Part shown: one piece after another, positions 4,035-33,353 of the stretch
Numbering within the stretch: the first letter of the stretch is position 1
Layout: every line of letters begins with the position of its first letter
Assembly: GCA_016204695.1 (NCBI GenBank)
Contig: JACQKD010000014.1
Location: 88,170-152,169, forward strand
Source: Candidatus Kaiserbacteria bacterium
GTDB lineage: Bacteria; Patescibacteriota; Minisyncoccia; Phycocordibacterales; UBA918
Length of the DNA: 64,000 nucleotides
Direction of reading: 5' to 3'
Position numbers and translations under genes: made by a program
Notes under the pieces: generated by a model
Seen by the model: the letters and a program-made list of their open reading frames with translations, nothing else
Databases searched by the model: none
Told to the model about the DNA's origin: nothing

Positions 4035-5096
4035 ATGGCCAACAGCCGCACCGTTGAATATGTTTTCTTTTTCGGGATTCTCGGCCTGGCGGCGTATGTC
4101 ATGTGGCAGATTGTCGAACCGTTTTTCGGATCGCTTGCGGTCGCGGCAATCATCGCCACTGTCGGGTATCCGTTTTACCGGAGGATTCTTGTCCTGATGC
4201 CTCGGCAGAACAGGGGTCTTGCGGCGCTTGCCACGACACTTCTTATCGGCCTGCTGGTCGTAGTGCCGCTTGCCGTACTTGCGTACCTCATCTTCGAACA
4301 GACGTTTTCCCTCTATACGTTTCTAAGCCACGACGGCGCGACGACGGTCAACCAGTCGATTTCCCACATAGAGTCCTTGGTGCACGGCGTCGTGCCATCG
4401 TTTACATTCGATGCGGGAACCTATGCGAGACAGGCGACCGAATGGCTCGCCACGCATATCGGCGCCATTTTCGCCGCCACGACCTCAACGGTCTTTTTCA
4501 TCTTCATCGCAACGGTCGCCGTCTTCTATTTCTTTCGCGACGGCGAGCAGTGTATCGCCTACATAACCGAGATCAGCCCGCTTCCCAAAGAGGAGAATGC
4601 GCATATCTTCAAGGCACTTGCTCGCTCAATGCGCTCTGTGGTGCTCGGCACCCTCGCGGTCGCCATCATACAAGGCGTCCTGACCGCCATCGGGTTTGCG
4701 ATCTTCGGCATCAGTACTCCGGTCCTCTGGGGAGCGGTAGCGGCAGTCGGTTCGTTGATACCGGGAGTCGGCACCCTTATCGTATTCGTGCCGGCCGTCG
4801 TCTATTTCGCCCTGCAAGGCTCGTACGGCGCGATGTTGGGACTCGTTATTTGGGGAAGTGTGGCGGTGGGTATGATCGACAATCTGCTCGGGCCATATCT
4901 CATGAGCCGCGGCGCGGCGCTCCACCCACTCCTGGTGCTCCTCACGGTCCTCGGCGGTATCGCGGTATTCGGACCCATGGGCTTTATCCTCGGACCGGTG
5001 ACATTGAGCCTGCTTGCGGTGTTGCTTGAGCTTCACGCCGCACGTGCAAAATCAGGCCTTCCGACCGAACATCCTTCGGTTTCTTATGATGGATAA
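4035..5096 (+). CDS. AI-2E family transporter (PerM/UPF0118-like permease)
   Basis: Eight or more TM helices; conserved VAIIQGVLTAIGFAIFGISTPVLWG...LIPGVG region typical of AI-2E family. Confidence 0.8.
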   Translation: MANSRTVEYVFFFGILGLAAYVMWQIVEPFFGSLAVAAIIATVGYPFYRRILVLMPRQNRGLAALATTLLIGLLVVVPLAVLAYLIFEQTFSLYTFLSHDGATTVNQSISHIESLVHGVVPSFTFDAGTYARQATEWLATHIGAIFAATTSTVFFIFIATVAVFYFFRDGEQCIAYITEISPLPKEENAHIFKALARSMRSVVLGTLAVAIIQGVLTAIGFAIFGISTPVLWGAVAAVGSLIPGVGTLIVFVPAVVYFALQGSYGAMLGLVIWGSVAVGMIDNLLGPYLMSRGAALHPLLVLLTVLGGIAVFGPMGFILGPVTLSLLAVLLELHAARAKSGLPTEHPSVSYDG

Positions 5097-5526
5097 ACGC
5101 TTCATAGACTCATACCTCCGTATTAACAACGTAGACGAACGCGCTTCGGAGGCGACCGTACGCAAGACGCTTGGGGACGCCCGTTGGCCGAAGGAAGAGA
5201 TCGAGGAAGCCATTCTCGTGCGAAACGGCGACGAAGCGGCAAAGGCGCGACTCATACAAAAAGAAAAAGAGCGGACGTTTCGACCGGACATGGACTGGTC
5301 GTCAACCAAACTTTCGACACTGTTGGGTACCGACGTTGTTATCGATCCGAAATTGTTCCAGACATATGCGCACAGACAGGAGCAAGCGGGAGGCGGCGTC
5401 AGGACAATACTGTTCGGACTCTCTATTGCCGCGATTGCGACCATTATCGCCGCAGGCATAGGAGTGGCCTTGTTGTACTTTCTCGAAATGGGCCCTTTTT
5501 ACACTCAAGCGCAGGACATTATCTAG
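5086..5526 (+). CDS. Hypothetical protein with C-terminal TM helix
   Basis: In-frame ATG at 5086 (MMDKRF) avoids overlap with the upstream gene. C-terminal LFGLSIAAIATIIAAGIGVALLYF. Confidence 0.4.
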   Translation: MMDKRFIDSYLRINNVDERASEATVRKTLGDARWPKEEIEEAILVRNGDEAAKARLIQKEKERTFRPDMDWSSTKLSTLLGTDVVIDPKLFQTYAHRQEQAGGGVRTILFGLSIAAIATIIAAGIGVALLYFLEMGPFYTQAQDII

Positions 5527-7830: not shown

Positions 7831-9150
7831 ATGACTCCATTCTCTTTCTCCATTACAAAAAAGCTGTCCGGCAAACTCGGCAGAGTGGGCGTTATCCATA
7901 CGCCGCACGGCGACATCGAGACTCCGGCATTTACCGTTGTCGGCACCAAAGCGACGGTGAAAGCGCTCTCGCCGGAGGACGTACGCGACCTTGTCGGCGC
8001 GCAGGCCGTACTCGTCAACACCTACCATCTCTACCTCCAGCCGGGCGAAGCACTTATCAAAGATGCGGGCGGATTGCACACATTCATGCACTGGGACGGG
8101 CCGACACTCTCCGACTCCGGCGGCTTCCAGGTCTTTTCGCTCGGCGCGGGCCTGGAAGGAAAGGGTGAGAAGCGAATACTTGGAGCTTCGCAAGACTCAT
8201 CGAGGGCTTTTGTGAGGGACGAAACAAAAGACCCGATGAGTGGACAGCGCCGGTACGGCGTCACCAAATTCACCGGCGAGTTCGCGGACTCCTCCGACGA
8301 CATGCGTCCGCGCCTCTATAACAAAGAGATTGCACTCCAGCACGGCAAGCTCTGCATCCTCGACGAAGAAGGCGTGACGTTTACCTCGCATCTCGACGGC
8401 TCGCTTCACCGCTTCACCGCCGAACGTTCGATCGAAATACAGCATGCCATCGGCGCGGACATCATGTTCGCGTTCGACGAGTGCACGTCTCCGACCGCCG
8501 ACTATGTATACCAGAAAGAGGCGCTTGAACGCACGCACCGCTGGGCCAAGCGCTCGATTCTTGCACACAAACGCGACTACAACGCGCTGAAATCGCAAGC
8601 GCTCTACGGCATCGTACAGGGCGGTCGTTTTGAGGACTTGCGAAAGGGGAGCGCGACCGAGCTTGCAAAAATGGATTTCGACGGGTACAGCTTCGGCGGC
8701 GCGTTCTCAAAGGAAGACCTCAAGACGCTTGAATGGGTCAACGCCATCCTACCGGAAGAAAAGCCTCGGCATCTCCTCGGCATCGGCGAACCGGAAGATC
8801 TCTTCATCGGTGTCGAGAACGGCATGGACACCTTTGACTGCGTCCTCCCGACCCGTATCGCCCGCACCGGCACCATCTACACCCATCACGGAAAAGTTAA
8901 TCTACTGCGAACGGAGTACCAGCGCGACCTCGGAAAGCCCGACGACACCTGCGACTGCTACACGTGCACCCACTACACCCGCGCCTACCTCGCCCACCTT
9001 TTCCGCGCAAAAGAAATGCTCGCCGCCCGCCTCGCCTCCATCCACAATCTCCATTTCATCGTCTCCCTCATAAAAAACATCCGTCGCAACATCCTCGACG
9101 ATACCTACCCACAATCCAAAGAAAACTTTTTACGAACGTATCGGGTTTAA
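7831..9150 (+). CDS. tgt: Queuine tRNA-ribosyltransferase with an ~60-aa internal insertion
   Basis: Motifs TPAFTVVGTKATVKAL, NTYHLYLQPG, LSDSGGFQVFSLG, GVTFTSHLDGSLHRFTAERSIEIQHAIGADIMFAFDEC and the zinc site CDCYTCTHYTRAYLAHL. At 439 aa it is longer than the usual ~370-380; the extra segment (~8160-8340) contains repeat copy 1. Confidence 0.9.
   Translation: MTPFSFSITKKLSGKLGRVGVIHTPHGDIETPAFTVVGTKATVKALSPEDVRDLVGAQAVLVNTYHLYLQPGEALIKDAGGLHTFMHWDGPTLSDSGGFQVFSLGAGLEGKGEKRILGASQDSSRAFVRDETKDPMSGQRRYGVTKFTGEFADSSDDMRPRLYNKEIALQHGKLCILDEEGVTFTSHLDGSLHRFTAERSIEIQHAIGADIMFAFDECTSPTADYVYQKEALERTHRWAKRSILAHKRDYNALKSQALYGIVQGGRFEDLRKGSATELAKMDFDGYSFGGAFSKEDLKTLEWVNAILPEEKPRHLLGIGEPEDLFIGVENGMDTFDCVLPTRIARTGTIYTHHGKVNLLRTEYQRDLGKPDDTCDCYTCTHYTRAYLAHLFRAKEMLAARLASIHNLHFIVSLIKNIRRNILDDTYPQSKENFLRTYRV
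8165..8260 (+). repeat. Structured palindromic repeat family, copy 1 (in frame inside tgt)
   Basis: Hairpin A GAAGCGAATACTTGGAGCTTC (8169-8189), long imperfect hairpin B ACTCATCGAGGGCTTTTGT...ACAAAAGACCCGATGAGT (8195-8241), and 3' module CAGCGCCGGTACGGCG (8245-8260). Homologous to 39233-39421, 32383-32505(-) and 34656-34772(-). Confidence 0.75.
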
Positions 9151-9375
9151 ATGCACACTCTTGTCGTTGATATGTCGATCTGATTTTAATCCTATCGCGG
9201 TATATTCATGTTTCATCACGTCCATGCCTTGCGCTACCTTGTCTATCGCTTCCAGCAATACGCCCGTCATATTTTCTAAGTCTGTTTTTGTAGCAAACTC
9301 ATCAAGTCGAGTATTGAGTTCAGCCCTTGTAGGGAAAACAACCATCAGTTTTTTAATATCGGTGTCCGTGATCAT
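9130..9375 (-). CDS. Hypothetical small protein (AT-rich segment)
   Basis: 81-aa ORF in an AT-rich stretch between tgt and uvrB; no motif. Confidence 0.3.
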   Translation of the reverse strand: MITDTDIKKLMVVFPTRAELNTRLDEFATKTDLENMTGVLLEAIDKVAQGMDVMKHEYTAIGLKSDRHINDKSVHLNPIRS

Positions 9376-9475
9376 ATAGAAATGATACGTCTCAAGTTTT
9401 CTTTGTCAAACAAAAAGAAAACCGCCCCTTGCATGGACAAAGGAACGGTTTTCCTTTGTCCACCGGAGTGGACGG

Positions 9476-9844
9476 CTACAAGCTTTCGACAAATTCCTTG
9501 ACGTCTAGGATGGAATCGGGAGAACGTTCCTCCATTACTGTAAATAGCTGGGAGAGTTGCGGAGATACCGCAACTCGACAAACAAGAAAAAGACTACCCT
9601 CAATCTCTCTAACCGACACGCCACTGCTACGCAAATTTTGAAATCCGACTCTGCTATACTCGCGACTTCGGAATCGAACCATTAGAAACTTCACATCGCT
9701 GGGATCCAATTCCGCCAACAAGTACAACGTGCCGTTCATCAGACCAAGCTGACCGATGGCGCCACCGGTCATCTGATCGAAAAGATTCCTGACAGTCTGG
9801 TTTTCCGGAACTAACGAATACACTCGCATCTCTTTTTCCTCCAC
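9476..9844 (-). CDS. Hypothetical protein (AT-rich segment)
   Basis: 122-aa ORF; no confident family assignment. Confidence 0.35.
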   Translation of the reverse strand: MEEKEMRVYSLVPENQTVRNLFDQMTGGAIGQLGLMNGTLYLLAELDPSDVKFLMVRFRSREYSRVGFQNLRSSGVSVREIEGSLFLVCRVAVSPQLSQLFTVMEERSPDSILDVKEFVESL

Positions 9845-9927: not shown

Positions 9928-11967
9928 ATGAGCGGGTTTAAACTCTCTACAAACTACACCCCCGCGGGGGACCAGCCGAAGGCGATTGAGTCGCTTATAA
10001 AAGGCGTCAAGCGCGGCGACCGACACCAGACGCTTCTTGGTGTCACCGGCTCCGGCAAGACGTTCACGGCGGCAAACGTCATCGCGGCCATACAGAAGCC
10101 GACGCTCGTCATCGCACACAACAAGACGCTCGCGGCACAGCTCGCGCAGGAGTACGCGGACTTCTTTCCCGAAAACGACGTGCATTATTTCGTCTCGTAC
10201 TACGACTACTACCAACCCGAGGCGTACATGCCCATTTCGGACACATACATCGAGAAGGAGGCGATGATCAACGAGGAGATCGACCGCCTCCGCCACGCTT
10301 CGACGCAGGCACTTCTCTCGCGAAGCGATGTCATCATCGTCGCATCCGTCTCGTGCATTTACGGCCTCGGCTCGCCGATAGAATATGAAAAAGTGCACAA
10401 GCGCATCGAAGTCGGTACGGTCATCACGCGGCGCGACATGGTGCGCGCGCTCGTGGCATTGTATTTTGAACGTACCAACGCCGACCTTGCGCCCGGCCAC
10501 TTCCGCGCACTCGGCAACACCATAGAAATAATGCCGACAAACGAGCGCGTTATCTACCGGCTCTCCTTCAGCGGAGACGCCGTGGGAAAGATAGAACGCA
10601 TCGACGCGGTCACACGGACAATCATCGCGGAAGTGCCGACATTTTTCCTCTTTCCCGCAAAACATTTCGTGACACCCGAGCTGGAACGCAAGCGCGCCAT
10701 CGCCGACATTACACTCGAGCTCAAAGACCAGCTCGCAAAATTTGAAAAAGAAGGGAAGATTCTCGAAGCCGAGCGCATCAAGCGGCGCACCCAGCACGAC
10801 CTTGCGCTCATACGCGAAATCGGCTATTGCAACGGCATTGAAAACTACTCCCGCCATTTCGACGGCCGCAAGCCGGGGGAAGCGCCGTACACCCTCCTTT
10901 CATACTTCCCGCACAAGCCGGACGGCATGCCGGACTTTTTGACCATTATCGACGAGTCGCACGTCACCATCCCCCAGCTCGGCGGCATGTACGCGGGCGA
11001 CCGCTCGCGCAAGGACACGCTCGTCGAGCACGGATTCCGCCTGCCGAGCGCCGTGGATAACCGGCCGCTGACGTTTGACGAGTTTGAGGAGCGCGTCGGC
11101 GAAACCATCTACACCTCCGCGACGCCCGGCACCTACGAACACGAGCACAGCACGCAAGTCGTCGAGCAGATCATCCGTCCGACCGGACTTGTGGACCCGG
11201 AAATTATTGTGCGTCCGATTGTGAGTCAAGAAGAAAATCAAGGAAAAAATACTGAAGCGTACCCCGGACAAGTACGAGATTTCATCGCTGAAACAGAAAA
11301 GGTAGTAAAAGGCGGCGGCCGCGTGCTCGTCACCACGCTCACGAAAAAAATGGCCGAAGACCTCTCCGAATTCCTCAAGGAGCAAAGCGTGCAAGCCGAA
11401 TACATCCATAGCGAAATCAAGACGCTTGAACGCATCGAAATACTCACCAACTTTCGCAGAGGGAAGTTCGACGTGCTCGTCGGAGTCAACCTGCTCCGAG
11501 AAGGACTCGACCTTCCCGAAGTCGAGCTTGTCGCCATACTCGATGCGGACAAAGAGGGTTTCTTGCGTTCAGAAACATCGCTCATCCAGACCATCGGCCG
11601 CGCCGCACGCAATGTCAACGGCCGCGTCATACTCTACGCCGACGGGATGACCGGCTCGCTTGAAAAAGCCATCGGCGAGACCAACCGTCGCCGCGCCATT
11701 CAAATCGCATACAACACCGAGCACGGCATCACCCCGGCCACCATCAAGAAAGAAATCAAAGACATCACCGAACAGCTCCGTACCGTCCATGAGGAGACCG
11801 TAGACACACTCCTTTCCATCGACCGCGACCTCTACAAGAAGAACCCCAAGAAACTCATCCGCGAAAAGAACCGCCAAATGGCGGAAGCCGTCAAACTCCT
11901 CGACTTCGAAACCGCCGCCATCCTCCGCGACGAGATCAGAGCGCTGGAGGACAGAGGAGGTAGATAG
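9928..11967 (+). CDS. uvrB: Excinuclease ABC subunit B
   Basis: LLGVTGSGKTFTAANVIA (Walker A), YFVSYYDYYQPEAY, helicase motifs, C-terminal UVR domain LDFETAAILRDEIRALE. Confidence 0.95.
   Translation: MSGFKLSTNYTPAGDQPKAIESLIKGVKRGDRHQTLLGVTGSGKTFTAANVIAAIQKPTLVIAHNKTLAAQLAQEYADFFPENDVHYFVSYYDYYQPEAYMPISDTYIEKEAMINEEIDRLRHASTQALLSRSDVIIVASVSCIYGLGSPIEYEKVHKRIEVGTVITRRDMVRALVALYFERTNADLAPGHFRALGNTIEIMPTNERVIYRLSFSGDAVGKIERIDAVTRTIIAEVPTFFLFPAKHFVTPELERKRAIADITLELKDQLAKFEKEGKILEAERIKRRTQHDLALIREIGYCNGIENYSRHFDGRKPGEAPYTLLSYFPHKPDGMPDFLTIIDESHVTIPQLGGMYAGDRSRKDTLVEHGFRLPSAVDNRPLTFDEFEERVGETIYTSATPGTYEHEHSTQVVEQIIRPTGLVDPEIIVRPIVSQEENQGKNTEAYPGQVRDFIAETEKVVKGGGRVLVTTLTKKMAEDLSEFLKEQSVQAEYIHSEIKTLERIEILTNFRRGKFDVLVGVNLLREGLDLPEVELVAILDADKEGFLRSETSLIQTIGRAARNVNGRVILYADGMTGSLEKAIGETNRRRAIQIAYNTEHGITPATIKKEIKDITEQLRTVHEETVDTLLSIDRDLYKKNPKKLIREKNRQMAEAVKLLDFETAAILRDEIRALEDRGGR
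11896..11952 (+). repeat. Direct repeat A (native 3' end of uvrB)
   Basis: CTCGACTTCGAAACCGCCGCCATC... is repeated at 12919-12976 (first 24 nt identical, remainder ~75% identical and AT-richer). Confidence 0.7.
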
Positions 11968-12005
11968 TGTGAAGAGATAATTCCTTCTCTGATAAGATTG
12001 GAGAT

Positions 12006-12719
12006 ATGACCGATGATGAGATTCGCGAGACGGCAATCGAGTTTGCAAAACGAAACAAAAACCGCATTGCCCGAGAGCTTACCGACAAGACAACGTATGC
12101 GCCGGACACTGCACCGGTTTCCATTTTTATGGCTGGCTCGCCCGGAGCGGGAAAGACGGAATTTTCAAAAGCATTGATAACGCTTTTGGAAGTGCGCACG
12201 GGGCTTCGCGCGGTACGAATCGATAACGATGAGATACGTCCTTTAATTCCCGGATACACCGGAAGTAACTCATACCTATTCCAAGGAGCAACGACGCTCA
12301 TTGTCGAAAAAATGCATGACCTTGCCCTACATAACGGACAAAGTTTTATTATGGACAACACGTTCACGAATTTTGAAAAGGGTACTGATAATATCAGACG
12401 TTCCCTTGGAAAAGAACGCCCGATTTTAATTTTCTACTTGTACCAAAAACCGGAGGTTGCGTGGAGATTTACGCAAGCGCGAGAAGCGACAGAAGGCAGA
12501 AATATCCCGAAAGGGGCATTTATCGAACAATTTTTAGGTGCACGTCATACGGTTGCCAAAATCATCGATAGATTCGGAGACCGAGTCATTGCTTTTCTTG
12601 TCAAGAAAGATTTTGAGAAAAACACCTTGGAAGGCATCTATCGTGTTGTCGAAAGCCAAGAAATTGACCGGTATATACCAGAGGAGTACACTGAAGAGAA
12701 GTTGCAAGAATGCTTATGA
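12006..12719 (+). CDS. Zeta-toxin-family P-loop kinase (zeta/PezT-like)
   Basis: Walker A MAGSPGAGKTEF, RIDNDEIRPLIP, about 230 aa, AT-rich. Confidence 0.65.
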   Translation: MTDDEIRETAIEFAKRNKNRIARELTDKTTYAPDTAPVSIFMAGSPGAGKTEFSKALITLLEVRTGLRAVRIDNDEIRPLIPGYTGSNSYLFQGATTLIVEKMHDLALHNGQSFIMDNTFTNFEKGTDNIRRSLGKERPILIFYLYQKPEVAWRFTQAREATEGRNIPKGAFIEQFLGARHTVAKIIDRFGDRVIAFLVKKDFEKNTLEGIYRVVESQEIDRYIPEEYTEEKLQECL

Positions 12720-12898
12720 AACTACGCGCCATATTCTCTTTATTTCGAGACAACAAGAAAGGAGATTCTTTTTCCGATGTTCTTTTGCGTGCGCCTGAAG
12801 GTCAAAGGGAAGAATTATTCAAGGAAGCGGCACGACAGGCCAACGAGGAGCAAAGAAAAATATTTGAGCAGTCCCGCGTGAACACTCCGGCTTCTTGA
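12710..12898 (+). CDS. Small helical protein overlapping the zeta-toxin stop (possible cognate partner)
   Basis: 62-aa ORF whose ATG lies inside GAATGCTTATGA at the toxin 3' end (10-nt overlap). Confidence 0.3.
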   Translation: MLMKLRAIFSLFRDNKKGDSFSDVLLRAPEGQREELFKEAARQANEEQRKIFEQSRVNTPAS

Positions 12899-12918
12899 AA
12901 ACCGTCAAATCCGGCGGA

Positions 12919-12987
12919 CTCGACTTCGAAACCGCCGCCATCTTGCGGGATGAGATACGAGCGTTGGAAGAAGGAACGAAAAAGTAG
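12919..12987 (+). repeat. Direct repeat B: displaced duplicate of the uvrB 3' end (pseudo C-terminus ...LDFETAAILRDEIRALEEGTKK*)
   Basis: Homologous to 11896-11967; the pair brackets the zeta cassette. Confidence 0.7.
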
Positions 12988-12993
12988 TATAAT
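12988..12993 (+). promoter_or_regulatory. Putative -10 box (TATAAT) upstream of the vapB-like gene
   Basis: TATAAT lies 9 nt upstream of the GTG at 13003. Confidence 0.3.
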
Positions 12994-13002
12994 CACACCA
13001 TC

Positions 13003-13176
13003 GTGACCAAAGCTACCGTCACAAAAAGACTTACCGGCTTGGAGGCCGAGATTCGGATGCTCAAGACAGCCGTACGTACGCGACCGAATTTCGTCGTGGA
13101 TGACGCAAACTGGAAAAAAATTAAACCTGCTCTAAAGAAAGTGCGCAAACAGGTTTCCAAGCAGACCTATGGCTAA
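13003..13176 (+). CDS. vapB: VapB-like antitoxin (small ORF absent from the track because of its GTG start and <60 aa length)
   Basis: GTG-initiated 57-aa ORF VTKATVTKRLTGLEAEIRMLKTAVRTRPNFVVDDANWKKIKPALKKVRKQVSKQTYG. Its stop overlaps the vapC ATG (ATGGCTAA), indicating translational coupling. Confidence 0.5.
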   Translation: MTKATVTKRLTGLEAEIRMLKTAVRTRPNFVVDDANWKKIKPALKKVRKQVSKQTYG

Positions 13177-13606
13177 GCCAAAGGTTTTTGTAGACTCCAG
13201 TGTCATCATTGCTTCGCTTCTATCCGCAACAGGAGGTAGCGCGTATATTCTCAACAGCTATCACGAAAACTGCGAGTTTCAAACGAATGAGCACGGCTTG
13301 GCGGAAATTCAAAGGGTATTAAAAGATAAATTCGCCGATCAACCGGATTTACAAAACCAACTCTTTCTACTCCTCGGCACGGCTCGGATAGTAATATTAC
13401 TGAATCCTACAAAACGGGAACGAAACATTTGTGCCAAATATATTTCCGAGATAGACGCACCCATTCTCGCCTCGGCAATCAAGCATAGTGACTACTTGCT
13501 CACTCTTGATAACGAATTTTTAGGAAAGAGTGTGGCAGAAATCGCTCGAAAGAATTCTCTAACCATCCTAAAACCAAAAGATTTTATAGAACAATTCGAA
13601 ACATAA
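13169..13606 (+). CDS. vapC: PIN-domain toxin (VapC family)
   Basis: VFVDSSVIIASL (N-terminal catalytic Asp), DAPILASAI, LLTLDNEF. Confidence 0.8.
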   Translation: MAKPKVFVDSSVIIASLLSATGGSAYILNSYHENCEFQTNEHGLAEIQRVLKDKFADQPDLQNQLFLLLGTARIVILLNPTKRERNICAKYISEIDAPILASAIKHSDYLLTLDNEFLGKSVAEIARKNSLTILKPKDFIEQFET

Positions 13607-13608
13607 AC

Positions 13609-14115
13609 ATGGAAAATATTATTGATTCTATTTCTAAAGCAATTAGAGACAAAAACTGGTATTCAGCACTGGCTGTTTCACTCATGATCCCGGATATTTG
13701 TACTGCGCTCGAACACGAAAGAACTAACGGCGGCAGATACGCTGATTGGTTTCAAGAAAACTTGATCCAATATGATGGCTTCCTTTCGGGAAACGATTGT
13801 TATGCATTAAGGTGTTCTTTATTACACGAAGCGAGAGATGATATTACAACTCAAAGATGTCGCGATGTCTTGGAACGCTATTTATTTACGACAAGTGGCT
13901 TACATTTAGGTCTATTTACAGAAAATTATCTGAACGGTGAGAGGATACCTTCTATACTAGTATTGAATGTTCAACATTTTTGTGAAGATGTATGTGCCGC
14001 CGCTACGAAATGGCTAGAAGCTAATAAAAGGGACGCACAAATACAAACTCGTCTGGGACAGACGATCAAAATCTACAGGCCTGGAGAAAGCTACAAAGGC
14101 GTAATAGGATTCTGA
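13609..14115 (+). CDS. Hypothetical protein, possible HEPN-like (Rx4H motif)
   Basis: ALRCSLLHEARD contains R-x4-H. AT-rich and immediately follows vapC. Confidence 0.35.
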   Translation: MENIIDSISKAIRDKNWYSALAVSLMIPDICTALEHERTNGGRYADWFQENLIQYDGFLSGNDCYALRCSLLHEARDDITTQRCRDVLERYLFTTSGLHLGLFTENYLNGERIPSILVLNVQHFCEDVCAAATKWLEANKRDAQIQTRLGQTIKIYRPGESYKGVIGF

Positions 14116-14197
14116 TAGATCTAGAAATAGAACGCCCGACTTGCTATAATCTACCCGTCACATCCTCACACTATGTCCATAGGTGAGGCCGTTATCT

Positions 14198-16837
14198 ATG
14201 TCCGAGAAAAAACAAATGCAGAAAAAAACCGTGGGGAAAACAGCGAAGGAAGAAATCGTCATCAAGGGTGCGCGGACGCATAACTTGAAGAATATTTCTT
14301 TGACCTTGCCGCGAGGCGCGATGATTGCGTTCACGGGGCTTTCGGGGTCGGGGAAGTCGTCGCTTGCGTTCGATACGATTTTCGCGGAAGGACAGCGGCG
14401 GTATGTCGAGTCGCTTTCGACATATGCGCGGCAGTTTTTGCGGCAGATGCAGAAGCCGGATGTGGACGAAATCAGCGGACTTTCTCCAGCTATTTCTATT
14501 GACCAGAAGTCTGCTTCACGCAACCCGCGCTCGACGGTCGCGACCATCACCGAGATATACGACTACCTCCGCATTCTCTATGCGCGCGTCGGCCAGCCGT
14601 ATTGCCTCGGCGTGGATGTGCCTATTCAAAAGCTCTCGCAGGACGAAATTCTGCGGATTATTCTCGAATCCATAGAGAAACGAGAGGTTAAAAAAGCACA
14701 AAAGGATGAGCAAAAGGTCATGGGCGTGCCGGTTTCCTCGGAGCGCCTTGCCATCTTCGCCCCGGTCATCGTCGGCAGAAAAGGCGAATACTACCAGCTT
14801 CTCTACGACCTCCTCGGCAAAGGATACGAGACAGTGAAGATAGATGGGGAGATCAAACAGCTTCGCGAGCGTATCACACTCGCGAAGACCAAGCGTCACG
14901 ACATCGACGTGCTCGTGGATGAGATATATGTGAGCGAATTCCGTGACGACCCGAAGGGCGCGCGCGAGCGGCTTTCGGAGGCGATCGAGTACGCGCTCAA
15001 GGAATCGTCGGGGCTCATCAAGGTGCAAAGTCCGGACGGGAGCGAGCGCACTCTCTCGGCAAAATTCATCTGCCCCTCCGATGGCTCGTCGTTCCCCGAA
15101 GTCGAGCCGCGGCTCTTTTCATTCAACTCGCCATACGGCGCCTGCCCGGAATGCAACGGCCTCGGCACCGTCGGTATCTTCCACAGCGACCTTTGCCCAG
15201 CATGTCTCGGCGCGCGGCTTCGTCCGGAAGCGTTGCGCGTATACCTCACCGACGGCACGAAAGGCTCGCTCGGAAAAAGCATTGTAGACTTCACCGCCAT
15301 GACAATTCGCGAAGCGTACCAGTTCGTCGAAGACATCAAGCTTTCCAAAAAACAACAGGAAATCGCCTGGCCCGCGCTCCGCGAGATTATCGACCGACTG
15401 CAATTCATGATAGATGTCGGCATCGAATATCTCACGCTCGACCGCCGCGCCAACACGCTCTCCGGCGGCGAGGCACAGCGCATCCGGCTCGCTTCCCAGC
15501 TCGGCTCGGGACTCGTCGGCGCGCTCTATGTGCTCGACGAGCCGACCATCGGCCTCCATCAGCGCGACAACGACCGCCTCATCAAGACGCTCACCAACCT
15601 GCGCGACCTCGGCAACACCATTCTCGTCGTCGAACACGACGAGGACACCGTGCTTGCATCCGACTATCTCGTGGACATTGGCCCGGGCGCGGGCGTACAC
15701 GGCGGTAATGTCGTCGTCGACGGCTGGCTCGAAGAATTGCTCAACGCGAAGAAAAATACCTCCGGCTCGGTGACGCTCGACTATCTGCGCGGCGACCGCG
15801 TCATTCCTCTGCCGGAAAAGCGCAGAGAAGGAGAAAAGGGCTCAATCAAAATCCACGGCGGCAAGGCGTTCAATATCAAAAATATGCATGTGGACATCCC
15901 GCTCGGCCGCCTCATCGCGCTCACGGGAGTATCCGGCTCGGGAAAGTCCACCTTCATGTATGAAATCCTCTATCGCAACCTGCGCTCGCGCCTCGAACGG
16001 AAATACCGCACGCCGCACACATACAATGCCGCATCATTCACCGGGAGCGAGTACCTCGGTCGCGCGGTCATGATCGACCAGTCGCCCATCGGCCGCACCC
16101 CACGCTCCAACCCGGCCACATACACCGGCGCGTTCACCCACATCCGCGACTTGTTCGCCGCCGCAACAGAAGCCCGCGCGCGCGGCTGGAAGCCCGGACG
16201 GTTTTCATTCAATGTCAAAGGCGGGCGGTGCGAAGCATGCCAAGGCAACGGAGAGATTGCCGTCGAGATGCACTTCCTCCCGACCGTGTATGTCACCTGC
16301 GATGTCTGCGACGGCAAGCGATTCACCAAAGAGACGCTTGAAGTCATGTACAAAGGCAAAAATATCGACGAGGTGCTCCATATGACTATTGAAGAGGCTC
16401 TTGATTTTTTCAATGACATTCCGGCGGTGTACGACCGTCTGCGCACACTCATGGATGTGGGGCTCGGGTACCTTGAGCTCGGCCAGAGTGCGACCACGCT
16501 CTCCGGCGGCGAAGCACAGCGCGTGAAGATTTCCGCCGAGCTCTACCGCCGCCATACCGAGAAGACGATGTACCTGCTCGACGAGCCCACCATCGGCCTG
16601 CATTACGAAGACGTGAAAAAATTGATAGAGATTTTGCAAGAACTCGTCAACCGCGGCAACACCGTGATGGTCATCGAGCACAATCTCGACTTCATTAAAT
16701 CCGCCGACTATGTCATAGACATCGGCCCCGAAGGCGGCGAGAAGGGAGGCGAGCTCATCGCCAAAGGCACCCCGGAGGAAGTCGCTAAAAGCCAACACTC
16801 GTATACTGGGAAGTATTTGAAGAAAGTGTTGAGATAA
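14198..16837 (+). CDS. uvrA: Excinuclease ABC subunit A
   Basis: Two ABC ATPase modules (GLSGSGKSSLAFDT; GVSGSGKSTFMYE; two LSGGEAQR signatures), zinc fingers CPSC/CPEC and CEAC/CDVCDG. Track ORF begins at GTG 14183; the ATG at 14198 has an upstream GGTGAGG. Confidence 0.95.
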   Translation: MSEKKQMQKKTVGKTAKEEIVIKGARTHNLKNISLTLPRGAMIAFTGLSGSGKSSLAFDTIFAEGQRRYVESLSTYARQFLRQMQKPDVDEISGLSPAISIDQKSASRNPRSTVATITEIYDYLRILYARVGQPYCLGVDVPIQKLSQDEILRIILESIEKREVKKAQKDEQKVMGVPVSSERLAIFAPVIVGRKGEYYQLLYDLLGKGYETVKIDGEIKQLRERITLAKTKRHDIDVLVDEIYVSEFRDDPKGARERLSEAIEYALKESSGLIKVQSPDGSERTLSAKFICPSDGSSFPEVEPRLFSFNSPYGACPECNGLGTVGIFHSDLCPACLGARLRPEALRVYLTDGTKGSLGKSIVDFTAMTIREAYQFVEDIKLSKKQQEIAWPALREIIDRLQFMIDVGIEYLTLDRRANTLSGGEAQRIRLASQLGSGLVGALYVLDEPTIGLHQRDNDRLIKTLTNLRDLGNTILVVEHDEDTVLASDYLVDIGPGAGVHGGNVVVDGWLEELLNAKKNTSGSVTLDYLRGDRVIPLPEKRREGEKGSIKIHGGKAFNIKNMHVDIPLGRLIALTGVSGSGKSTFMYEILYRNLRSRLERKYRTPHTYNAASFTGSEYLGRAVMIDQSPIGRTPRSNPATYTGAFTHIRDLFAAATEARARGWKPGRFSFNVKGGRCEACQGNGEIAVEMHFLPTVYVTCDVCDGKRFTKETLEVMYKGKNIDEVLHMTIEEALDFFNDIPAVYDRLRTLMDVGLGYLELGQSATTLSGGEAQRVKISAELYRRHTEKTMYLLDEPTIGLHYEDVKKLIEILQELVNRGNTVMVIEHNLDFIKSADYVIDIGPEGGEKGGELIAKGTPEEVAKSQHSYTGKYLKKVLR

Positions 16838-17085: not shown

Positions 17086-18339
17086 GTGCTAGAAATTAGA
17101 GACAAAATAATGACAAGTCAAGACTTACAAAAACTCAAATTGCCGGATGCGCCGGGCGTGTATTTCTTTTTGGGGAAGCGCAAGAAGATACTATATATCG
17201 GTAAGGCGACATCTCTGCGCTCACGGGTGCGGAGTTATTTTGCGGACGACATTCTAGAAAAACGAAGTGCGCTCATCGAGCAGATGGTCGCGGAGGCCGA
17301 AACGGTTGAGTGGACGGAAACAGACTCGGTACTTGAGGCGCTCATTCTTGAGGCAAATCTCATCCGCACGCACAAGCCGCGATACAACACGATTGCGAAA
17401 GACGACAAGACGTTCAACCACCTCGTGATTACCAACGAAGAGTATCCGCGCGTGCTCGTCGTGCGCGGCAAAGACCTCACCGAACGCTTTACAACAAAAG
17501 AAATCAAATACATCTTCGGCCCGTTTCCGAGCGGCATGCTCTTCCGCGAGGCGCTCGCCATCGTCCGAAAAATTTTCAAATTTTACGACACCGAGCGGCC
17601 AATCGGAGAAATCAAGACAAAGATGGGGAAGGGGACGATAGATTTCAATCGGCAAATCGGCCTCTATCCATCCGTGCAGTCCAAGCGGGAATATCAGCGA
17701 ACAATCCAGCACATCCGACTTTTCTTCGAGGGCAAAAAACATCAGCTCATCAAAATTCTCACCAAAGAAATGCGCGAATATGCACGCACACAGGCATTCG
17801 AGAAAGCGGGGGAAATAAAACGAAAGATATTCGCGCTTACCCACATCGAGGATGTCGCGCTCGTGCGGCGCGACATGTATCGCAATCGGGGATCACGCGC
17901 GACGCGCATCGAGGCATATGACATCGCGCACATGAGCGGCAAGGACATGGTCGGCGTGATGACTGTCGTCGAAAATGGGGAAGTGCGGACGAGCGAATAC
18001 CGCAAGTTCAAAATCGGAAGCGTCAAAAGCTCGAACGACCCGGCCGCGCTTCGCGAAGTGCTCGACCGCCGGCTTGCACACGCCGAGTGGCCGATGCCGC
18101 AGATGATTGTCGTCGACGGCGGCCGTGCCCAGAAGAACGCCGCCGAGCTCATTCTCAAAAAATACGGCATCGGCATCCCCGTCGTCGCGGTGACCAAAGA
18201 CGAATACCACCGCCCCAAGCGGCTCCTCGGCACACAAACCCTTATCCGCGAGCACGAAGACTCCATCCTCCTCGCCAACGTCGAATCCCACCGCTTCGCG
18301 ATCGCATACCATAGGCAGAAAAGAGGAAAGTTTGTATAA
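17086..18339 (+). CDS. uvrC: Excinuclease ABC subunit C-like (GIY-YIG nuclease), short form
   Basis: GIY-YIG motif PGVYFFLGKRKKILYIGKATSLRSRVRSYF. At 417 aa it lacks the usual C-terminal HhH region. Confidence 0.7.
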   Translation: MLEIRDKIMTSQDLQKLKLPDAPGVYFFLGKRKKILYIGKATSLRSRVRSYFADDILEKRSALIEQMVAEAETVEWTETDSVLEALILEANLIRTHKPRYNTIAKDDKTFNHLVITNEEYPRVLVVRGKDLTERFTTKEIKYIFGPFPSGMLFREALAIVRKIFKFYDTERPIGEIKTKMGKGTIDFNRQIGLYPSVQSKREYQRTIQHIRLFFEGKKHQLIKILTKEMREYARTQAFEKAGEIKRKIFALTHIEDVALVRRDMYRNRGSRATRIEAYDIAHMSGKDMVGVMTVVENGEVRTSEYRKFKIGSVKSSNDPAALREVLDRRLAHAEWPMPQMIVVDGGRAQKNAAELILKKYGIGIPVVAVTKDEYHRPKRLLGTQTLIREHEDSILLANVESHRFAIAYHRQKRGKFV

Positions 18340-21292: not shown

Positions 21293-23015
21293 GGTATCCG
21301 CTTAAGGCGGGACAATTGGGTGTCGGTCATGTACGCTGAAGGACTGAATTCCACCACGAGTTCAGTCACCCTTCAGAGGACCGACCGACATGAAATTTTG
21401 GGCCAAAAGTCTTCGCATTGTCAACGCTTTTTGTGACAACGCCGCGCAGAGCATCCGACACGTGGCGCATCAGACCGGGTTCTCCAAGAGCAGTGTGCAT
21501 CGCCTCAAACAGGCGATGGAACGCCGAGACCGCCACCCAGAGTCGTGGTTGTGGGAAACGGAAGAAGGCCACCGTTGGCTCCTCCGTCTGGTGGTCGCCG
21601 CCCTTTTTACGTTCGGTCTCACACGCGGTGTCGGGGCGGAAACCCTCAGCGAGTTTTTTGGCCGTCTGCGCCTCGAGGCACATATCGGGTCTTCGCCCAG
21701 CGCCTTGCGGAGGATGATGGAGGCGTTGGAGGCCGTGCTTCTGGAGACGGCAGGAACATGGGAGCACGAGGGGGTAGCTGCCGGAGAGATCAGACCAATC
21801 ATCGGCGCGGTGGACGAAACCTTCTTGGAACGCATGATGCTGGTGTTCATGGACCTTGCCAGTGGCTACTTGGTGGCTGAAGAGGTTGCCGCGGATCGGA
21901 GTTATGACACCTGGTACGCTGTGGTCACGGCACGCCTGGCGACGCTGGGGGTTGGTGTGAGGTACATGGTGAGTGACCGGGCCAAGGCACTGATCAAACT
22001 GGCGGACACGGGGCTGGCGTGCTTGAGCGTCCCGGACTTCTTCCACCTTCTCCATGACCTGACCAAGAGCTATTCGCTGGCCATTGTCAGTCGGCTGAGG
22101 CACGCGCAGCAGGCCTTGCAGCACGCGCAGGAGCGTCTTGCCGCGTGCCAAGAGGCTCATCCAGACGGTGCGGACGTGCAACACGTGCACGCCTTGGTGG
22201 AGGTGCATGAAGCGGAAGTCCAGCGCTGGCAAAACGTGCACAGTGACTACCGGCACCACCTCGAGCACCTGTCGCTCATCATGCATCCATGGCGCTTAGG
22301 AGGCTCGACACCCCAGACGTCACACGAAGTGGAAGACCTCTTACAGACAGAGATCGCGGCCCTGGAAACCTTGGTCGCAACGCAGGGGGTGCCCATCAAG
22401 AAGCACGCCTTGGAGAAGGTCCGCAAGCAGCTCGCGGGCGTCGCCGCCCTGGTGGACGTGTGGTGGCAGGAGGTGTGGCACGATGTGCAGTCTCAGGTTG
22501 CCCTGACGTCGCAGTGGCGGGGCTGGGTTGCAGAGTGTGTGCTGCCGCTCATGTATTGGCAGGAACAACTGGCGCGCACGCGTTGCCCACGACGCAAAGC
22601 CAAGCTCTTCGAGGCGTTGCAGACGGTTGAGGAGGCCATGGAAACGCATCCCCTCACCCGCCAGTTGGCCCCCGAGGTCCTGGCGGGGTGGAAAGTCTGG
22701 GCGGCCGAGCATGCCAGAGGCTTTCAGCGGGCCTCCTCGGCGGTTGAAGGGCGCAACGGTGCGCTGCCGCAGTTGCACCACAACCAGCGCGGCTTGCCCA
22801 AACGCCGCTACAAGGTGTGGACGGTGTTGCACAACTTCGACTGTCGTGCCGCGGACGGGAGCACGCCCGCCTCACGGTTTTTCCGGCACGAATTTCCGGA
22901 CCTCTTTGAGACGGTGCTCTCAAAAATCGATGACGTACCACGATCTCGTCAACGCCACCAGGCTCTGGCGATAAGTATTTGAAGCTATAGAATGTCCCGC
23001 TTTAAGCGGATACCC
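21293..23015 (+). mobile_element. Insertion sequence, ISL3-family-like (1.72 kb, single transposase, 22-bp terminal inverted repeats, 9-bp target-site duplication GGATGTAGG)
   Basis: IR-L GGTATCCGCTTAAGGCGGGACA (21293-21314) matches the reverse complement of IR-R (22993-23015) with one mismatch. Flanking direct repeat GGATGTAGG at 21284-21292 and 23016-23024. GC content is higher than surrounding DNA. Confidence 0.75.
21390..22982 (+). CDS. DDE transposase (ISL3-like)
   Basis: N-terminal HTH; catalytic-region signatures AVDETF...MDL, MVSDRAKAL...VPDFFHLLHDL (DrFHv-like) and AVEGRNGALPQLHHNQRGL (EGxN...RG). Confidence 0.7.
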   Translation: MKFWAKSLRIVNAFCDNAAQSIRHVAHQTGFSKSSVHRLKQAMERRDRHPESWLWETEEGHRWLLRLVVAALFTFGLTRGVGAETLSEFFGRLRLEAHIGSSPSALRRMMEALEAVLLETAGTWEHEGVAAGEIRPIIGAVDETFLERMMLVFMDLASGYLVAEEVAADRSYDTWYAVVTARLATLGVGVRYMVSDRAKALIKLADTGLACLSVPDFFHLLHDLTKSYSLAIVSRLRHAQQALQHAQERLAACQEAHPDGADVQHVHALVEVHEAEVQRWQNVHSDYRHHLEHLSLIMHPWRLGGSTPQTSHEVEDLLQTEIAALETLVATQGVPIKKHALEKVRKQLAGVAALVDVWWQEVWHDVQSQVALTSQWRGWVAECVLPLMYWQEQLARTRCPRRKAKLFEALQTVEEAMETHPLTRQLAPEVLAGWKVWAAEHARGFQRASSAVEGRNGALPQLHHNQRGLPKRRYKVWTVLHNFDCRAADGSTPASRFFRHEFPDLFETVLSKIDDVPRSRQRHQALAISI

Positions 23016-23267: not shown

Positions 23268-23312
23268 ATTGCGGGAGAGAAATAAGAGGCAGAGCAGGGA
23301 GAAAATGAAAGA

Positions 23313-23347
23313 GAGAAGCCGTCAGAATAAATCTCTGACGGCTTCTC
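23313..23347 (+). terminator. Terminator hairpin (14-bp stem, T-rich tail)
   Basis: GAGAAGCCGTCAGA / ATAAATC / TCTGACGGCTTCTC then TCTTTTCTC. Core GCCGTCAGA..TCTGACGGC is shared with the hairpin at 24963-24993. Confidence 0.6.
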
Positions 23348-23489
23348 TCTTTTCTCATGCTATAATCCGTTCAATTTGTACCTTCTAAACTGACGGGGAG
23401 AAAGTCCGGTGCCCTTTTTGATCTTCAGGGAGCTACGTCACTTTCCTCCCCCTCCATAGCCACCAACACTTGGTAGCTACGGCGGGGGC

Positions 23490-23705
23490 GTGAGTAAGGT
23501 CGACCGCTTCCCGAATTATCAACAAAAGTTCCGAATGTGTATGAGTATAAATAAAACTACTACTCAAACCGGGCAAAAAGCTCCTATTTCTGGTCAATAT
23601 CGGCCAGTTGGTACGCGCGACGAAATCACCCTCTCGAAGGGGGATCGTGTTCCACCGTACCAGAAGGAAGCCAAGAAGTTTGTTCTGGTTGATAAAACCA
23701 AATAG
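23490..23705 (+). CDS. YjzC-like small protein (hypothetical)
   Basis: GQKAPISGQYRPVGTRDEITLSKGDRVPP resembles the YjzC family pattern. Start may be the internal Met at 23544. Confidence 0.4.
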   Translation: MSKVDRFPNYQQKFRMCMSINKTTTQTGQKAPISGQYRPVGTRDEITLSKGDRVPPYQKEAKKFVLVDKTK

Positions 23706-23769
23706 CTTCTGACGCCCAGAATCCCCGTCAGTTTCGAGAGTACAACTCTTATTTTCTATAAGGCTCAGT

Positions 23770-23791
23770 GGGGATGTAGGTCGGTGTAGAC
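23770..23791 (+). repeat. 24-bp (TGTAGG)x3-type site, copy 2
   Basis: GGGGATGTAGGTCGGTGTAGAC lies 16 nt upstream of the SIR2-like ORF. Confidence 0.55.
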
Positions 23792-23806
23792 TTATACAAG
23801 TTCGTA

Positions 23807-24862
23807 TTGTTAAAAATTGGAAATCTGAATGAGGGTATGTCGAATCCACTTATAATTTTCGGAGCAGGCGCGTCCTTTGACTATTCTGCGTTTGGTAACA
23901 TCGCTCCACTTACTAATGATCTCGTCTCAGAACGTTTTCTTCATCACGATCTTTTAGAAAAATATCAAGGTGCCAACGATCTGTTATCTGATATGGTGCA
24001 CCAGGTCCATACACGTAATCGCGCATTTGAGACCGTCTTGAGCGAGATGAGAGAACGTGCGGCCCATTCTCCGCAACTTCTCAGTCAATTCGCAGCACTT
24101 GAATTTTATTTAAAAGCTCTTTTCAAGCGGATCTCAACTCCCTCGGACCTAACAAGAAGAGCGTATCAGGTAAACAATTATCGGATTATAAATAATCGTA
24201 TACATGCGTACTCTGGTGGTAGAGCAAATATTATATCTTTTAATTACGACACTCTCTTTGAGCATACTCTTGGTGCAAAAGCGCCAAAAAACATGCTGGA
24301 ATATATTTCTGGTGATATTAAAATCTTCAAACTGCATGGTTCCCACGACTGGCTTCATATACAACCAAGATCGCTAATGGGGGGTGATCCAAAGACAGAA
24401 GCAGAGGATATTGACTGGTACTTGGGTCGTCCAGATTTTATTGAGAATATTAGAGCTAGAAATGACACAAGTCCTTACCATGAACTAGAGCTCCACGAAC
24501 GTCCGAATAGAAATCGATATGCTTGGTTTCCAGCGATCGCTGTCCCTTTAAATAGTAAAGACAGATATGTTTGTCCTCCGAGGCATATCCAAGCGCTCGA
24601 ACAGGTACTGCCAAAGATCGATCGGGTTCTTATTATTGGTTGGAAAGCAGGAGATCAGCTTCTTCTTGAAATGCTTTCAAGACACTTGCCTAACTTCGGC
24701 TACAAGTTGCTTGTGATCTCAGGAACTGTAGATGGTGCGCAAAAGGTTGCCGAAGTTGTTCGAGATAAACTTACTGCCCATGCAGGAAAAATTGAGGCAC
24801 GTGGCGGTGGATTCTCAGATTTCGTAGGTAGCGATATAAGTCATAGCTTTTTTGCCGATTGA
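23807..24862 (+). CDS. SIR2-like (SIR2_2/DHS-like NAD-binding) domain protein, standalone; candidate anti-phage NADase
   Basis: IIFGAGASFD (GAGxS nucleotide-binding loop), ISFNYDTLFE, KLHGSHDW. AT-rich gene in a mobile island; track ORF starts at TTG 23807, first ATG at 23837. Confidence 0.7.
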   Translation: MLKIGNLNEGMSNPLIIFGAGASFDYSAFGNIAPLTNDLVSERFLHHDLLEKYQGANDLLSDMVHQVHTRNRAFETVLSEMRERAAHSPQLLSQFAALEFYLKALFKRISTPSDLTRRAYQVNNYRIINNRIHAYSGGRANIISFNYDTLFEHTLGAKAPKNMLEYISGDIKIFKLHGSHDWLHIQPRSLMGGDPKTEAEDIDWYLGRPDFIENIRARNDTSPYHELELHERPNRNRYAWFPAIAVPLNSKDRYVCPPRHIQALEQVLPKIDRVLIIGWKAGDQLLLEMLSRHLPNFGYKLLVISGTVDGAQKVAEVVRDKLTAHAGKIEARGGGFSDFVGSDISHSFFAD

Positions 24863-24962
24863 TTTATCATTACCAGGAGACACTTGACGACCTTGTATGC
24901 TTTGGTACTATATAGATACAAGTGGCTTCGGCCTCACCCCCGCAAGGGGGAGAAAATGCAGG

Positions 24963-24993
24963 AAAGCCGTCAGAACAAGTTTCTGACGGCTTT
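24963..24993. terminator. Bidirectional hairpin between convergent SIR2-like and MazF-like genes
   Basis: AAAGCCGTCAGAA / CAAGT / TTCTGACGGCTTT overlaps the last codons of the minus-strand toxin. A GC hairpin CCCCC GCAA GGGGG sits at 24934-24953. Confidence 0.5.
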
Positions 24994-33262: not shown

Positions 33263-33353
33263 CATCGGTTATTCGCGAGAATAAGCTTACCGATGATCAT
33301 ATCCTCTTTGAGATCCTCAAATTTGTATACACGGTTCACTTTTCGTTGCTACG

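Follow-up and report, generated by a model that had tools for sequence, protein, structure and literature searches.

A zeta-toxin cassette between two copies of the uvrB 3' end in a Candidatus Kaiserbacteria genome: a layout pointing to recombination-based spread

The interval between uvrB and uvrA was analyzed in a stretch of 64,000 nucleotides (nt) of Candidatus Kaiserbacteria bacterium (GenBank assembly GCA_016204695.1, contig JACQKD010000014.1, positions 88,170 to 152,169), referred to below as the window. Five genes are inserted in this interval, encoding a zeta-family kinase with a partner of 60 amino acids (aa), a PIN-domain protein with a partner of 57 aa, and a HEPN-like protein (ORF168). 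The GC content of these genes was 0.39-0.46, compared with 0.57 for uvrB and uvrA, in agreement with an earlier reading of the bare sequence (the original prediction), which had placed a foreign, AT-rich set of toxin-antitoxin type between the two genes. The kinase and its partner lie between two copies of the uvrB 3' end. The interval is best explained as a stack of three toxin-type modules, each independently mobile, that was assembled in two or more steps, and its layout points to recombination-based spread of such cassettes. The coordinates of all features are given in Table 1; the gene order tgt-uvrB-uvrA-uvrC was conserved across Parcubacteria. UvrB of the window gave no hit when looked up by exact sequence.

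The end of uvrB was found as a direct repeat at 11899-11951 and 12919-12971, in which 45 of 53 nt match (85%) and the leading 24 nt are identical (12919-12942 in copy 2). Read in frame, both copies give LDFETAAILRDEIRALE, then five differing codons, then TAG at the equal position, so the uvrB end does recur with its own stop codon as had been claimed. Weaker similarity continues upstream (GCCGTCAAA / ACCGTCAAA, with a 6-nt indel) and extends copy 2 to about 12899-12987. All 8 nucleotide differences across the 17 shared codons are synonymous, an outcome obtained once in 500,000 simulations of 8 random substitutions (P about 2e-6). In a self-BLAST of the window this repeat was the sole such pair near the locus (E 2e-9), and its flank-alignment score was 33 compared to a maximum of 13 for shuffled flanks. 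Because other Parcubacteria encode the same tail peptide at 55-74% nucleotide identity, the repeat reflects DNA homology and not convergence on a motif. On sequence grounds, the repeated uvrB end is a recombination footprint rather than a chance resemblance, as the original prediction held. That prediction also had the repeat bracket the whole island, and this part did not stand: the copies enclose the zeta and 60-aa cassette alone, 1,020 bp from start to start. Since the PIN pair and ORF168 sit beyond copy 2, the island was probably built in at least two steps; no third uvrB tail was found after the HEPN-like gene.

The two copies carry different codon-usage signatures. By log-likelihood ratio, the variable codons of copy 1 were host-like (+3.7) and those of copy 2 island-like (-3.4). 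Third positions in the 3' part of copy 2 were G in 7 of 14 codons and C in none, a G-ending, C-poor signature like that of the uvrA head. The promoter-like site in front of the 57-aa ORF (open reading frame) shared the best score in 11800-14300, with 10 of 12 matches. Its -35 hexamer, formed by two of the synonymous differences (CTG>TTG and GAG>GAA), lies within copy 2, and its -10 (12988-12993) abuts the copy 2 stop codon. As the promoter straddles its end, copy 2 looks like a former working uvrB end that was contiguous with the PIN operon, and the two copies have diverged in the manner of alleles, at silent sites and with the stop position kept. The 5' part of copy 2 has decayed (KTVKSGGL versus EAVKLL, with amino-acid changes and the 6-nt indel), which would fit a crossover in the exact 24-nt core that brought together an arm of old relic sequence and a resident tail functional until recently.

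Table 1. Features of the uvrB-uvrA interval and its neighbourhood (positions in the window)
Feature	Position	Strand	Remarks
tgt	7831-9150	+	
AT-rich stretch with two small minus-strand ORFs	9130-9844		
uvrB, intact, C3-rich (C at third codon positions)	9928-11967	+	679-aa ORF; 52-75% identical to other bacterial UvrB
Copy 1, functional uvrB tail (EAVKLLDFETAAILRDEIRALEDRGGR, stop)	11884-11967	+	Exact 24-nt core 11899-11922
Extended -10-like element TGATAAGAT	11990-11998	+	7 nt before zeta ATG
Zeta-family kinase, predicted toxin, 237 aa	12006-12719	+	
60-aa partner ORF, predicted antitoxin	12716-12898	+	ATGA overlap with zeta
Copy 2, second uvrB tail, displaced relic (KTVKSGGLDFETAAILRDEIRALEEGTKK, stop)	~12899-12987	+	
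Promoter-like site TTGGAA-18-TATAAT	12964-12993	+	Predicted driver of 57-aa/PIN operon
57-aa ORF, predicted antitoxin partner of PIN protein	13003-13176	+	
PIN-domain protein, 145 aa, VapC-like predicted RNase toxin	13169-13606	+	
Divergent HEPN-like protein, 168 aa (ORF168), without adjacent partner	13609-14115	+	
Promoter-like site TAGAAA-17-(TG)TATAAT 5' of uvrA	14122-14150	+	
uvrA, 884-aa ORF	14183-16837	+	56-78% identical to UvrA of related loci
uvrA 5' head, right-hand part of exchanged block	14183-14470	+	Start codon 14183, 14198 or 14216
uvrC	17086-18339	+	

The kinase had been named as zeta-family, and this was borne out by Pfam Zeta_toxin (PF06414, E 2.3e-37, 128.8 bits against a cut-off of 22.3, profile positions 3-177 of 199) and by fold matches. 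Its AlphaFold2 model (pLDDT 90) found zeta (1GVN/3Q8X), PezT (2P5T) and zeta1 (6EPG) as best PDB matches in Foldseek, with E from 3e-10 to 1e-6 and template modelling (TM) scores of 0.63-0.69; the fold also matched AvrRxo1. The substrate is UDP-N-acetylglucosamine for zeta and PezT and NAD for AvrRxo1. The Walker A motif GSPGAGKT and residues R71, D73, D75, R159 and R165 were invariant in 21 homologues. Identity to solved zeta toxins was 13-15%, and phmmer against PDB sequences gave no match. An identical zeta protein is recorded at NCBI for Candidatus Kaiserbacteria. From profile and model together, assignment to the zeta/PezT family is solid, and the kinase is a predicted toxin.

The small ORF behind the kinase overlaps it as proposed, with a start at 12716 (ATGA overlap, 60 aa as in homologues) being more likely than the start at 12710 given originally. 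It matched NCBIfam PRK13696 (1.3e-6) and, weakly, Pfam VAPB_antitox (PF02697, 0.011). A 60-aa partner with the same overlap followed zeta homologues in most other contexts examined, and the ORF is the predicted antitoxin of the kinase; toxicity and neutralisation are predicted entirely from family membership and gene arrangement. The module resembles epsilon/zeta and PezAT in its Zeta_toxin family, P-loop, conserved Asp and Arg residues, best superposition and two overlapping genes. It differs in its reversed order, with the toxin first and the small partner downstream, and in that the partner resembles archaeal PF02697/PRK13696 and not epsilon or PezA. An upstream antitoxin of epsilon/PezA type was absent, and the toxin-first order was conserved in the homologous cassettes examined. 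A TGnTAnAAT-type element was present at the same position 5' of zeta homologues in unrelated contexts (loci L164, L165 and L177) and in L224, so TGATAAGAT is probably the cassette's own promoter. The small ORF was followed by a terminator in most zeta-cassette loci, but by none in the uvrB lineage. Treating the 60-aa ORF and copy 2 as one frameshifted gene was rejected, the frame relation being -1 with no slippery site. Literature searches for zeta toxins in the candidate phyla radiation (CPR, or Patescibacteria) and for toxin-antitoxin cassettes linked to homology-facilitated illegitimate recombination returned nothing relevant.

The PIN protein matched Pfam PF01850 (3.3e-7, 31.4 bits against a cut-off of 23.6) and, under its 29.15-bit cut-off, TIGR00305 (1e-4, 22.6 bits). 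The 57-aa ORF overlaps it by 8 nt (ATGGCTAA). Of the VapB-like/VapC pair described in the original prediction, the PIN domain, the overlap and the TATAAT box were retained, and the VapB-like label was dropped: the 57-aa ORF had no match in Pfam, NCBIfam or PADLOC and fell in no known VapB family (AbrB, RHH or PHD). Of the hidden Markov model searches that had been suggested, those for zeta and PIN gave support, and the antitoxin-family match fell weakly on the 60-aa ORF, not on the 57-aa ORF. The pair resembles VapBC in that its PIN domain passes the Pfam threshold and a small partner gene precedes and overlaps the PIN gene. The 202 PIN homologues came mostly from CPR genomes, and a homologous 57-aa and 145-aa pair with the same overlap was present in an unrelated CPR context (L228-L230). 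Flanking repeats of the PIN module were found neither here nor elsewhere. The HEPN-like protein reported before uvrA was also supported: R68 and H73 (ALRCSxLHEG) were invariant in 33 sequences, which gives the Rx4H motif, and the protein may have HEPN-like helices; its likeness to HEPN toxin modules lies in the motif and in these putative helices. The nearest ORF168 and PIN homologues on long contigs were not adjacent to uvrB, and no donor carrying uvrB-PIN-HEPN was found. PADLOC gave no meaningful matches.

Three Logan contigs carried the identical island. The closest diverged relatives found, L224 and L225, come from other samples, and their zeta proteins are 81% and 87% identical to that of the window (79-84% nucleotide identity). 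Both show the layout uvrB tail, ~29-nt spacer, zeta, small ORF (sORF), second uvrB tail, and the junction between sORF stop and second tail is the same in all three genomes. The empty site expected in relatives was seen in part: near-empty uvrB-uvrA gaps occurred in distant relatives only (L005 with 68 nt, L087 with under 100 nt, and L004). The insertion is not a private recent one with an empty site next door, because L224 and L225 already hold uvrB, zeta, sORF and tail. The same content without a duplicated uvrB end, which had been named in advance as favouring vertical inheritance and a coincidental repeat, is not what these two contigs show. Third-position identity between the window and L224 was 0.60 in uvrB and 0.64 in zeta; this similar divergence indicates that the linkage of the two genes is not recent. 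At 11884-11921, 37 of 38 nt were identical to L224, compared to a third-codon identity of ~0.6 elsewhere. Gaps in other Parcubacteria ranged up to 4.7 kb, and no zeta or PIN gene was found in those examined. The genes in them were of ordinary kinds and had native GC (response regulators, membrane proteins, a MurB-like gene), so the gap was rejected as a toxin-antitoxin hot spot in these other Parcubacteria.

Exchange between strains was visible at the right-hand side of the island. Contig L002, from another sample, was 100% identical to the window over 11909-14469 (2,561 nt) and then dropped to ~78% inside uvrA. Third positions in the head of uvrA were rich in G (G3 0.42-0.58) and poor in C (C3 0.12-0.22), and became C3-rich from ~14470-14483; this switch was present in both the window and L002 (L002 2275-2700). 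Because the break in identity coincides with the switch in composition, a recombination junction lies inside uvrA at ~14470. Judged from composition and identity, the island is a mosaic block with a junction in uvrA, common to diverged strains.

The combination of cassette and repeated gene end was also found elsewhere. In L169 (2874-6019), a type I restriction locus, the zeta cassette lies between hsdS and a second hsdS tail of 162 nt, and a third tail follows a DUF3800 gene (hsdS-[zeta, sORF]-tail2-[DUF3800]-tail3). Each of the three tails reads as an HsdS C-terminus that either stops at the same position or is truncated, and synonymous differences among them are about as many as non-synonymous ones. 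The arrangement suggests that defence cassettes have accumulated in tandem behind hsdS. Upstream of the array are Shedu (SduA_C) and another DUF3800 gene. The zeta cassette of L165 lies between perfect 26/26-nt repeats, and in L197, a Pseudomonas-like prophage region, a 52/55-nt repeat flanks the cassette upstream of mutS. The repeats of L197 (3807-3861 / 5102-5156) and L198 (3816-3863 / 5080-5127) flank a distant zeta cassette with a 55-56-aa partner and consist of the region just 5' of mutS plus the mutS start. A flank-repeat score of at least 26 was reached in 3 of 7 independent CPR contexts versus 3 of 400 random pseudo-cassettes. Candidate flanking repeats of the distant cassettes L203, L205, L210 and L212 were merely similar terminators and were rejected.

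The scan for second tails covered about 150-160 uvrB loci. In Nostoc-like L157 (8998-9684), uvrB is followed by a 79-aa ORF, a ParE-like toxin (PF24732, 9.5e-10) and a second uvrB end that matches at 37 of 40 nt (DRIQHLRDKMLGR). In Nostoc-like L064 (9998-12976) a 24-nt uvrB tail copy remains; extra genes, including a NACHT NTPase fragment, stand there between uvrB and the same antitoxin gene. Downstream matches in L015, L016 and L134 were rejected as the paralogous UVR domain of uvrC. Over all collected loci, downstream tail copies were found for 11 of 1,988 ORF tails: the toxin-cassette cases, tandem paralogues, an internal uvrA repeat and one membrane-protein insertion in the window.

Our account of the island places the 57-aa/PIN operon and the HEPN-like gene in an older layer directly 3' of uvrB, with the PIN-operon promoter overlapping the uvrB stop codon. 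In a later step, the zeta/60-aa cassette with its own -10 element would have entered with a replacement uvrB 3' end, by recombination inside the short conserved core CTCGACTTCGAAACCGCCGCCATC. uvrB would have been kept intact as copy 1, and the resident end pushed downstream as the untranslated relic copy 2, which would still supply the -35 of the PIN-operon promoter. The cassette could have come in by a double crossover in which the body of uvrB and the relic tail served as arms of homology, or by a Campbell-type single crossover of a circle. A structure of gene tail, cassette and gene tail could enter the uvrB of any relative without damage, and selection would act against loop-out between the repeats, since a cell that loses the antitoxin gene is predicted to die. 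The whole block, from the uvrB core or further upstream (the shared contig begins at 11909) to ~14470, would also be exchanged between strains through flanking homology. The sequences show the arrangement of the parts, their family assignments, the recurring layout and the uvrA junction, and from these we infer this order of events and the dependence on host recombination; that the cassette arrived with its replacement uvrB end by host homologous recombination in short conserved cores has, in our judgement, about an even chance of being right. Host recombination is favoured because the cassette has no recombinase and because the same cassette family has unrelated repeats at different targets. 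The original prediction allowed site-specific or homologous integration of an element. Recombination was supported, and no integrase, transposase or recombinase domain was found among island proteins, the cassette included (ORF list; Pfam, NCBIfam, PADLOC), nor were terminal inverted repeats found at cassette or island ends. A wider generalization can be put forward tentatively and may well fail: small toxin-antitoxin cassettes (zeta/60-aa in CPR, ParE-like in Nostoc) would be a class of recombinase-free mobile element with a spare gene end as portable homology arm, through which host recombination would place the cassette at the corresponding conserved gene end of new genomes and leave the gene undamaged. 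The toxin would then punish loop-out and leave stable scars of gene end, cassette and gene end, with tandem accretion.

Several known systems share parts of this layout. Phage 21 integrates into icd, as does e14, an element of ~15 kb that encodes its own integrase and excisionase. At the e14 site, icd extends into the prophage and a C-terminal pseudogene, icdC, stands at the other end, the two gene ends differing mainly at silent sites (PMC13626634). The likeness to e14 and phage 21 lies in the insertion at a 3' end, the substitute end that keeps the gene intact and the displaced end left downstream; the locus here has the 3'-end direct repeat and the substitute end, and no integrase between the repeats. 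It differs in being 1,020 bp with a toxin-antitoxin pair only and no recombinase, and in that the zeta cassette family is flanked elsewhere by the ends of unrelated targets. In Dehalococcoides, ssrA islands follow one another in tandem, a direct repeat of the gene 3' end marks the boundary of each, and some lack integration genes (PMC3146451). These islands and cis-mobilizable elements (CIMEs) resemble the present case in successive 3'-end insertions that each leave a direct repeat, the parallel units being hsdS-[zeta, sORF]-tail-[DUF3800]-tail in L169 and uvrB-[zeta, sORF]-tail-[PIN pair, HEPN] in the window. Like a CIME, the cassette has att-like repeats and lacks recombination genes of its own. 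The ssrA islands share a conserved 20-bp repeat, and many of their units carry a dedicated serine integrase module, whereas no cognate integrase or shared core was found for zeta cassettes. Homology-facilitated recombination of islands is similar in the sharp junctions of identity and composition within uvrA and at the uvrB tail and in the variable content of the uvrB-uvrA gap. Ordinary flank-mediated replacement, however, leaves no duplicated gene end; in the present case the duplicated uvrB end itself seems to act as a right-hand, portable arm of homology. The features of a DDE or insertion-sequence-type transposon were lacking, there being no inverted repeats, a duplication of 53-90 nt and no transposase.

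These comparisons bear on a rival origin in which the cassette is a decayed site-specific integrative element, like a CIME, with the repeats as attL and attR. The element would have carried an integrase and an attP with a substitute uvrB 3' end, decay would have spared only the addictive toxin-antitoxin pair, and the cassette could still be mobilized by an integrase located elsewhere. We consider this unlikely, though it deserves serious weight: it has precedents in e14/icd and Dehalococcoides ssrA, and the tandem hsdS tails of L169, the 33-nt tRNA-Val 3'-end duplicate around an integrase-less 1.5-kb islet in the window and the conservation of a 38-nt core (37/38) between lineages otherwise ~20% diverged agree with it. 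On the other hand, neither the cassette nor the island nor any zeta-cassette locus examined carried an integrase, and the repeats were unrelated between sites (uvrB, hsdS, intergenic, mutS upstream). Since the flanking repeats differ in sequence by site, one integrase cannot explain them all. The cassette also lies close against both repeats, at distances of 38 nt and 0 nt in the window and of 2 nt and 35 nt in L169, so a decayed element would need repeated precise two-sided deletions. No cognate integrase or parent element with the same att site was seen among about 160 uvrB loci or the zeta loci, in which no dedicated search was made. If the repeat had instead arisen in situ as a long target-site duplication, by a staggered break with fill-in or by template switching, with neutral drift of the downstream copy afterwards, the near-perfect short repeats elsewhere (26/26 in L165; 52/55 in L197) and their varying lengths would be accounted for. 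The synonymous pattern (8/8, P 2e-6) and the differing codon-usage signatures are, however, unexpected from drift of an untranslated copy, and the L169 tails are all plausible HsdS C-termini, which makes this origin very improbable.

The remaining explanations concern copy 2 itself. It might be a functional mini-gene for a 30-aa UVR-helix peptide, coupled through NTGA to the antitoxin and acting on UvrB/UvrC or on the toxin system. Its tail frame is open, each of the three genomes has an NTG overlapping the sORF stop (TTGA, GTGA, TTGA), the 17-codon UVR motif shows no amino-acid change, and the layout is kept across lineages at 79-84% nucleotide identity. But an NTG before TGA is expected by chance in three of four cases, the peptide lacks the first UVR hairpin helix and has a decayed N-terminal part in the window, and at other cassettes the repeated sequence is the tail of an unrelated gene or intergenic DNA. 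The conservation is accounted for just as well by the promoter role and a recent origin, it is the whole of the positive evidence, and we regard a mini-gene as improbable. That copy 2 is a chance similarity or an independent UVR-domain gene fragment is hardly credible at all. LDFETAAILRDEI is indeed a very conserved UvrB motif in Parcubacteria, and UvrC has a paralogous UVR domain. Against this stand the 24-nt exact core and a 45/53 match overall versus the 55-74% of other Parcubacteria, the equal stop position, the same junction in three genomes, and shuffle and self-BLAST statistics that exclude chance.

A number of observations weigh against entry of the cassette by host recombination as outlined above. 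The contigs of L224 and L225 end inside the repeat, so that 25-36 nt of copy 2 are visible and its 3' half is unseen. The equal divergence of uvrB and zeta suggests long vertical co-inheritance, which is awkward with 17 untouched core codons in copy 2; these codons would need a recent re-import or gene conversion. The codon-usage argument is built on 9-14 codons, and an exact core of 24 nt is at the lower limit for RecA-type recombination. Neither an excision product nor a close-relative empty site nor a donor genome was seen, flanking repeats are absent from many of the more distant zeta cassettes, and L002, as a short-read contig, could be chimeric. Finally, given the tRNA-Val 3'-end duplication in the window, an integrase acting in trans stays conceivable.

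The movement of toxin-antitoxin modules between chromosomes is poorly understood, and most of them have no mobility genes. The footprint described here comprises a replacement gene end, a displaced allele-like resident end and a short exact core, and it recurs with the same cassette at unrelated targets and with an unrelated cassette at the same target, uvrB, in another phylum. Entry by host recombination, if true, would show how minimal selfish cassettes safely invade conserved gene ends, why persisting repeat-flanked inserts tend to be addictive, and how small defence or toxin islands accrete in reduced CPR genomes. The locus also marks the uvrB-uvrA region, a gene cluster of an essential pathway, as a site of recombination between strains.

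Other repeats and islets were noted in the window. A 33-nt copy of the 3' end of tRNA-Val (34782-34856, minus strand) is 97% identical (33231-33263 / 34781-34813, 1.55 kb apart). The two repeats bracket a slightly AT-richer islet with a DUF6629 membrane protein (33354-34019) and a 152-aa ORF (34091-34549), in which no integrase was found. By its arrangement, this duplication is putatively a classical footprint of integration that lacks its recombinase. The 5' end of a 234-aa gene (37666-38370; MKLKQKKKFLVFSAHP...) also recurs 683 nt upstream as a 39-nt copy, 92% identical (36992-37030 / 37675-37713). Between the copies lies a single minus-strand gene for a 170-aa membrane protein (37093-37605); a gene end is again duplicated around a small insert, here one that is not a toxin cassette. 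An AT-rich islet at 23297-25003 (GC ~0.43-0.46) contains a 351-aa ORF with a weak SIR2-like match, and a terminator hairpin stands at either end, the two being nearly identical (GAAGCCGTCAGAA...TCTGACGGCTTC). As this pair of similar hairpins makes up the 59-nt repeat at 23297 and 24948, the repeat was rejected as a gene-end duplication. Beside the islet, at 21390-22982, a 530-aa protein with a helix-turn-helix and DUF6399 adjoins a tRNA-Ala / tRNA-Arg cluster.

The gap between tgt and uvrB (9130-9844) has a GC content of ~0.42-0.49. Its minus-strand ORFs, of 81 aa and 122 aa, had no match in Pfam, NCBIfam or PADLOC, and the 81-aa ORF overlaps the tgt stop by ~20 nt. A hairpin-rich repeat family of ~100 nt (GAAGCGAATACTTGGAGCTTCC...CAAGACTCATCGAG...TTTTG.GAG...CAAAAGA...CGATGAGTG) was found in at least five copies (8161-8262, 32398-32505, 34685-34774, 39233-39263 and 1892-1967). 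One copy lies within the tgt reading frame and two adjoin tRNA genes, and the family may be an element similar to miniature inverted-repeat transposable elements (MITE) or repetitive extragenic palindromes (REP).

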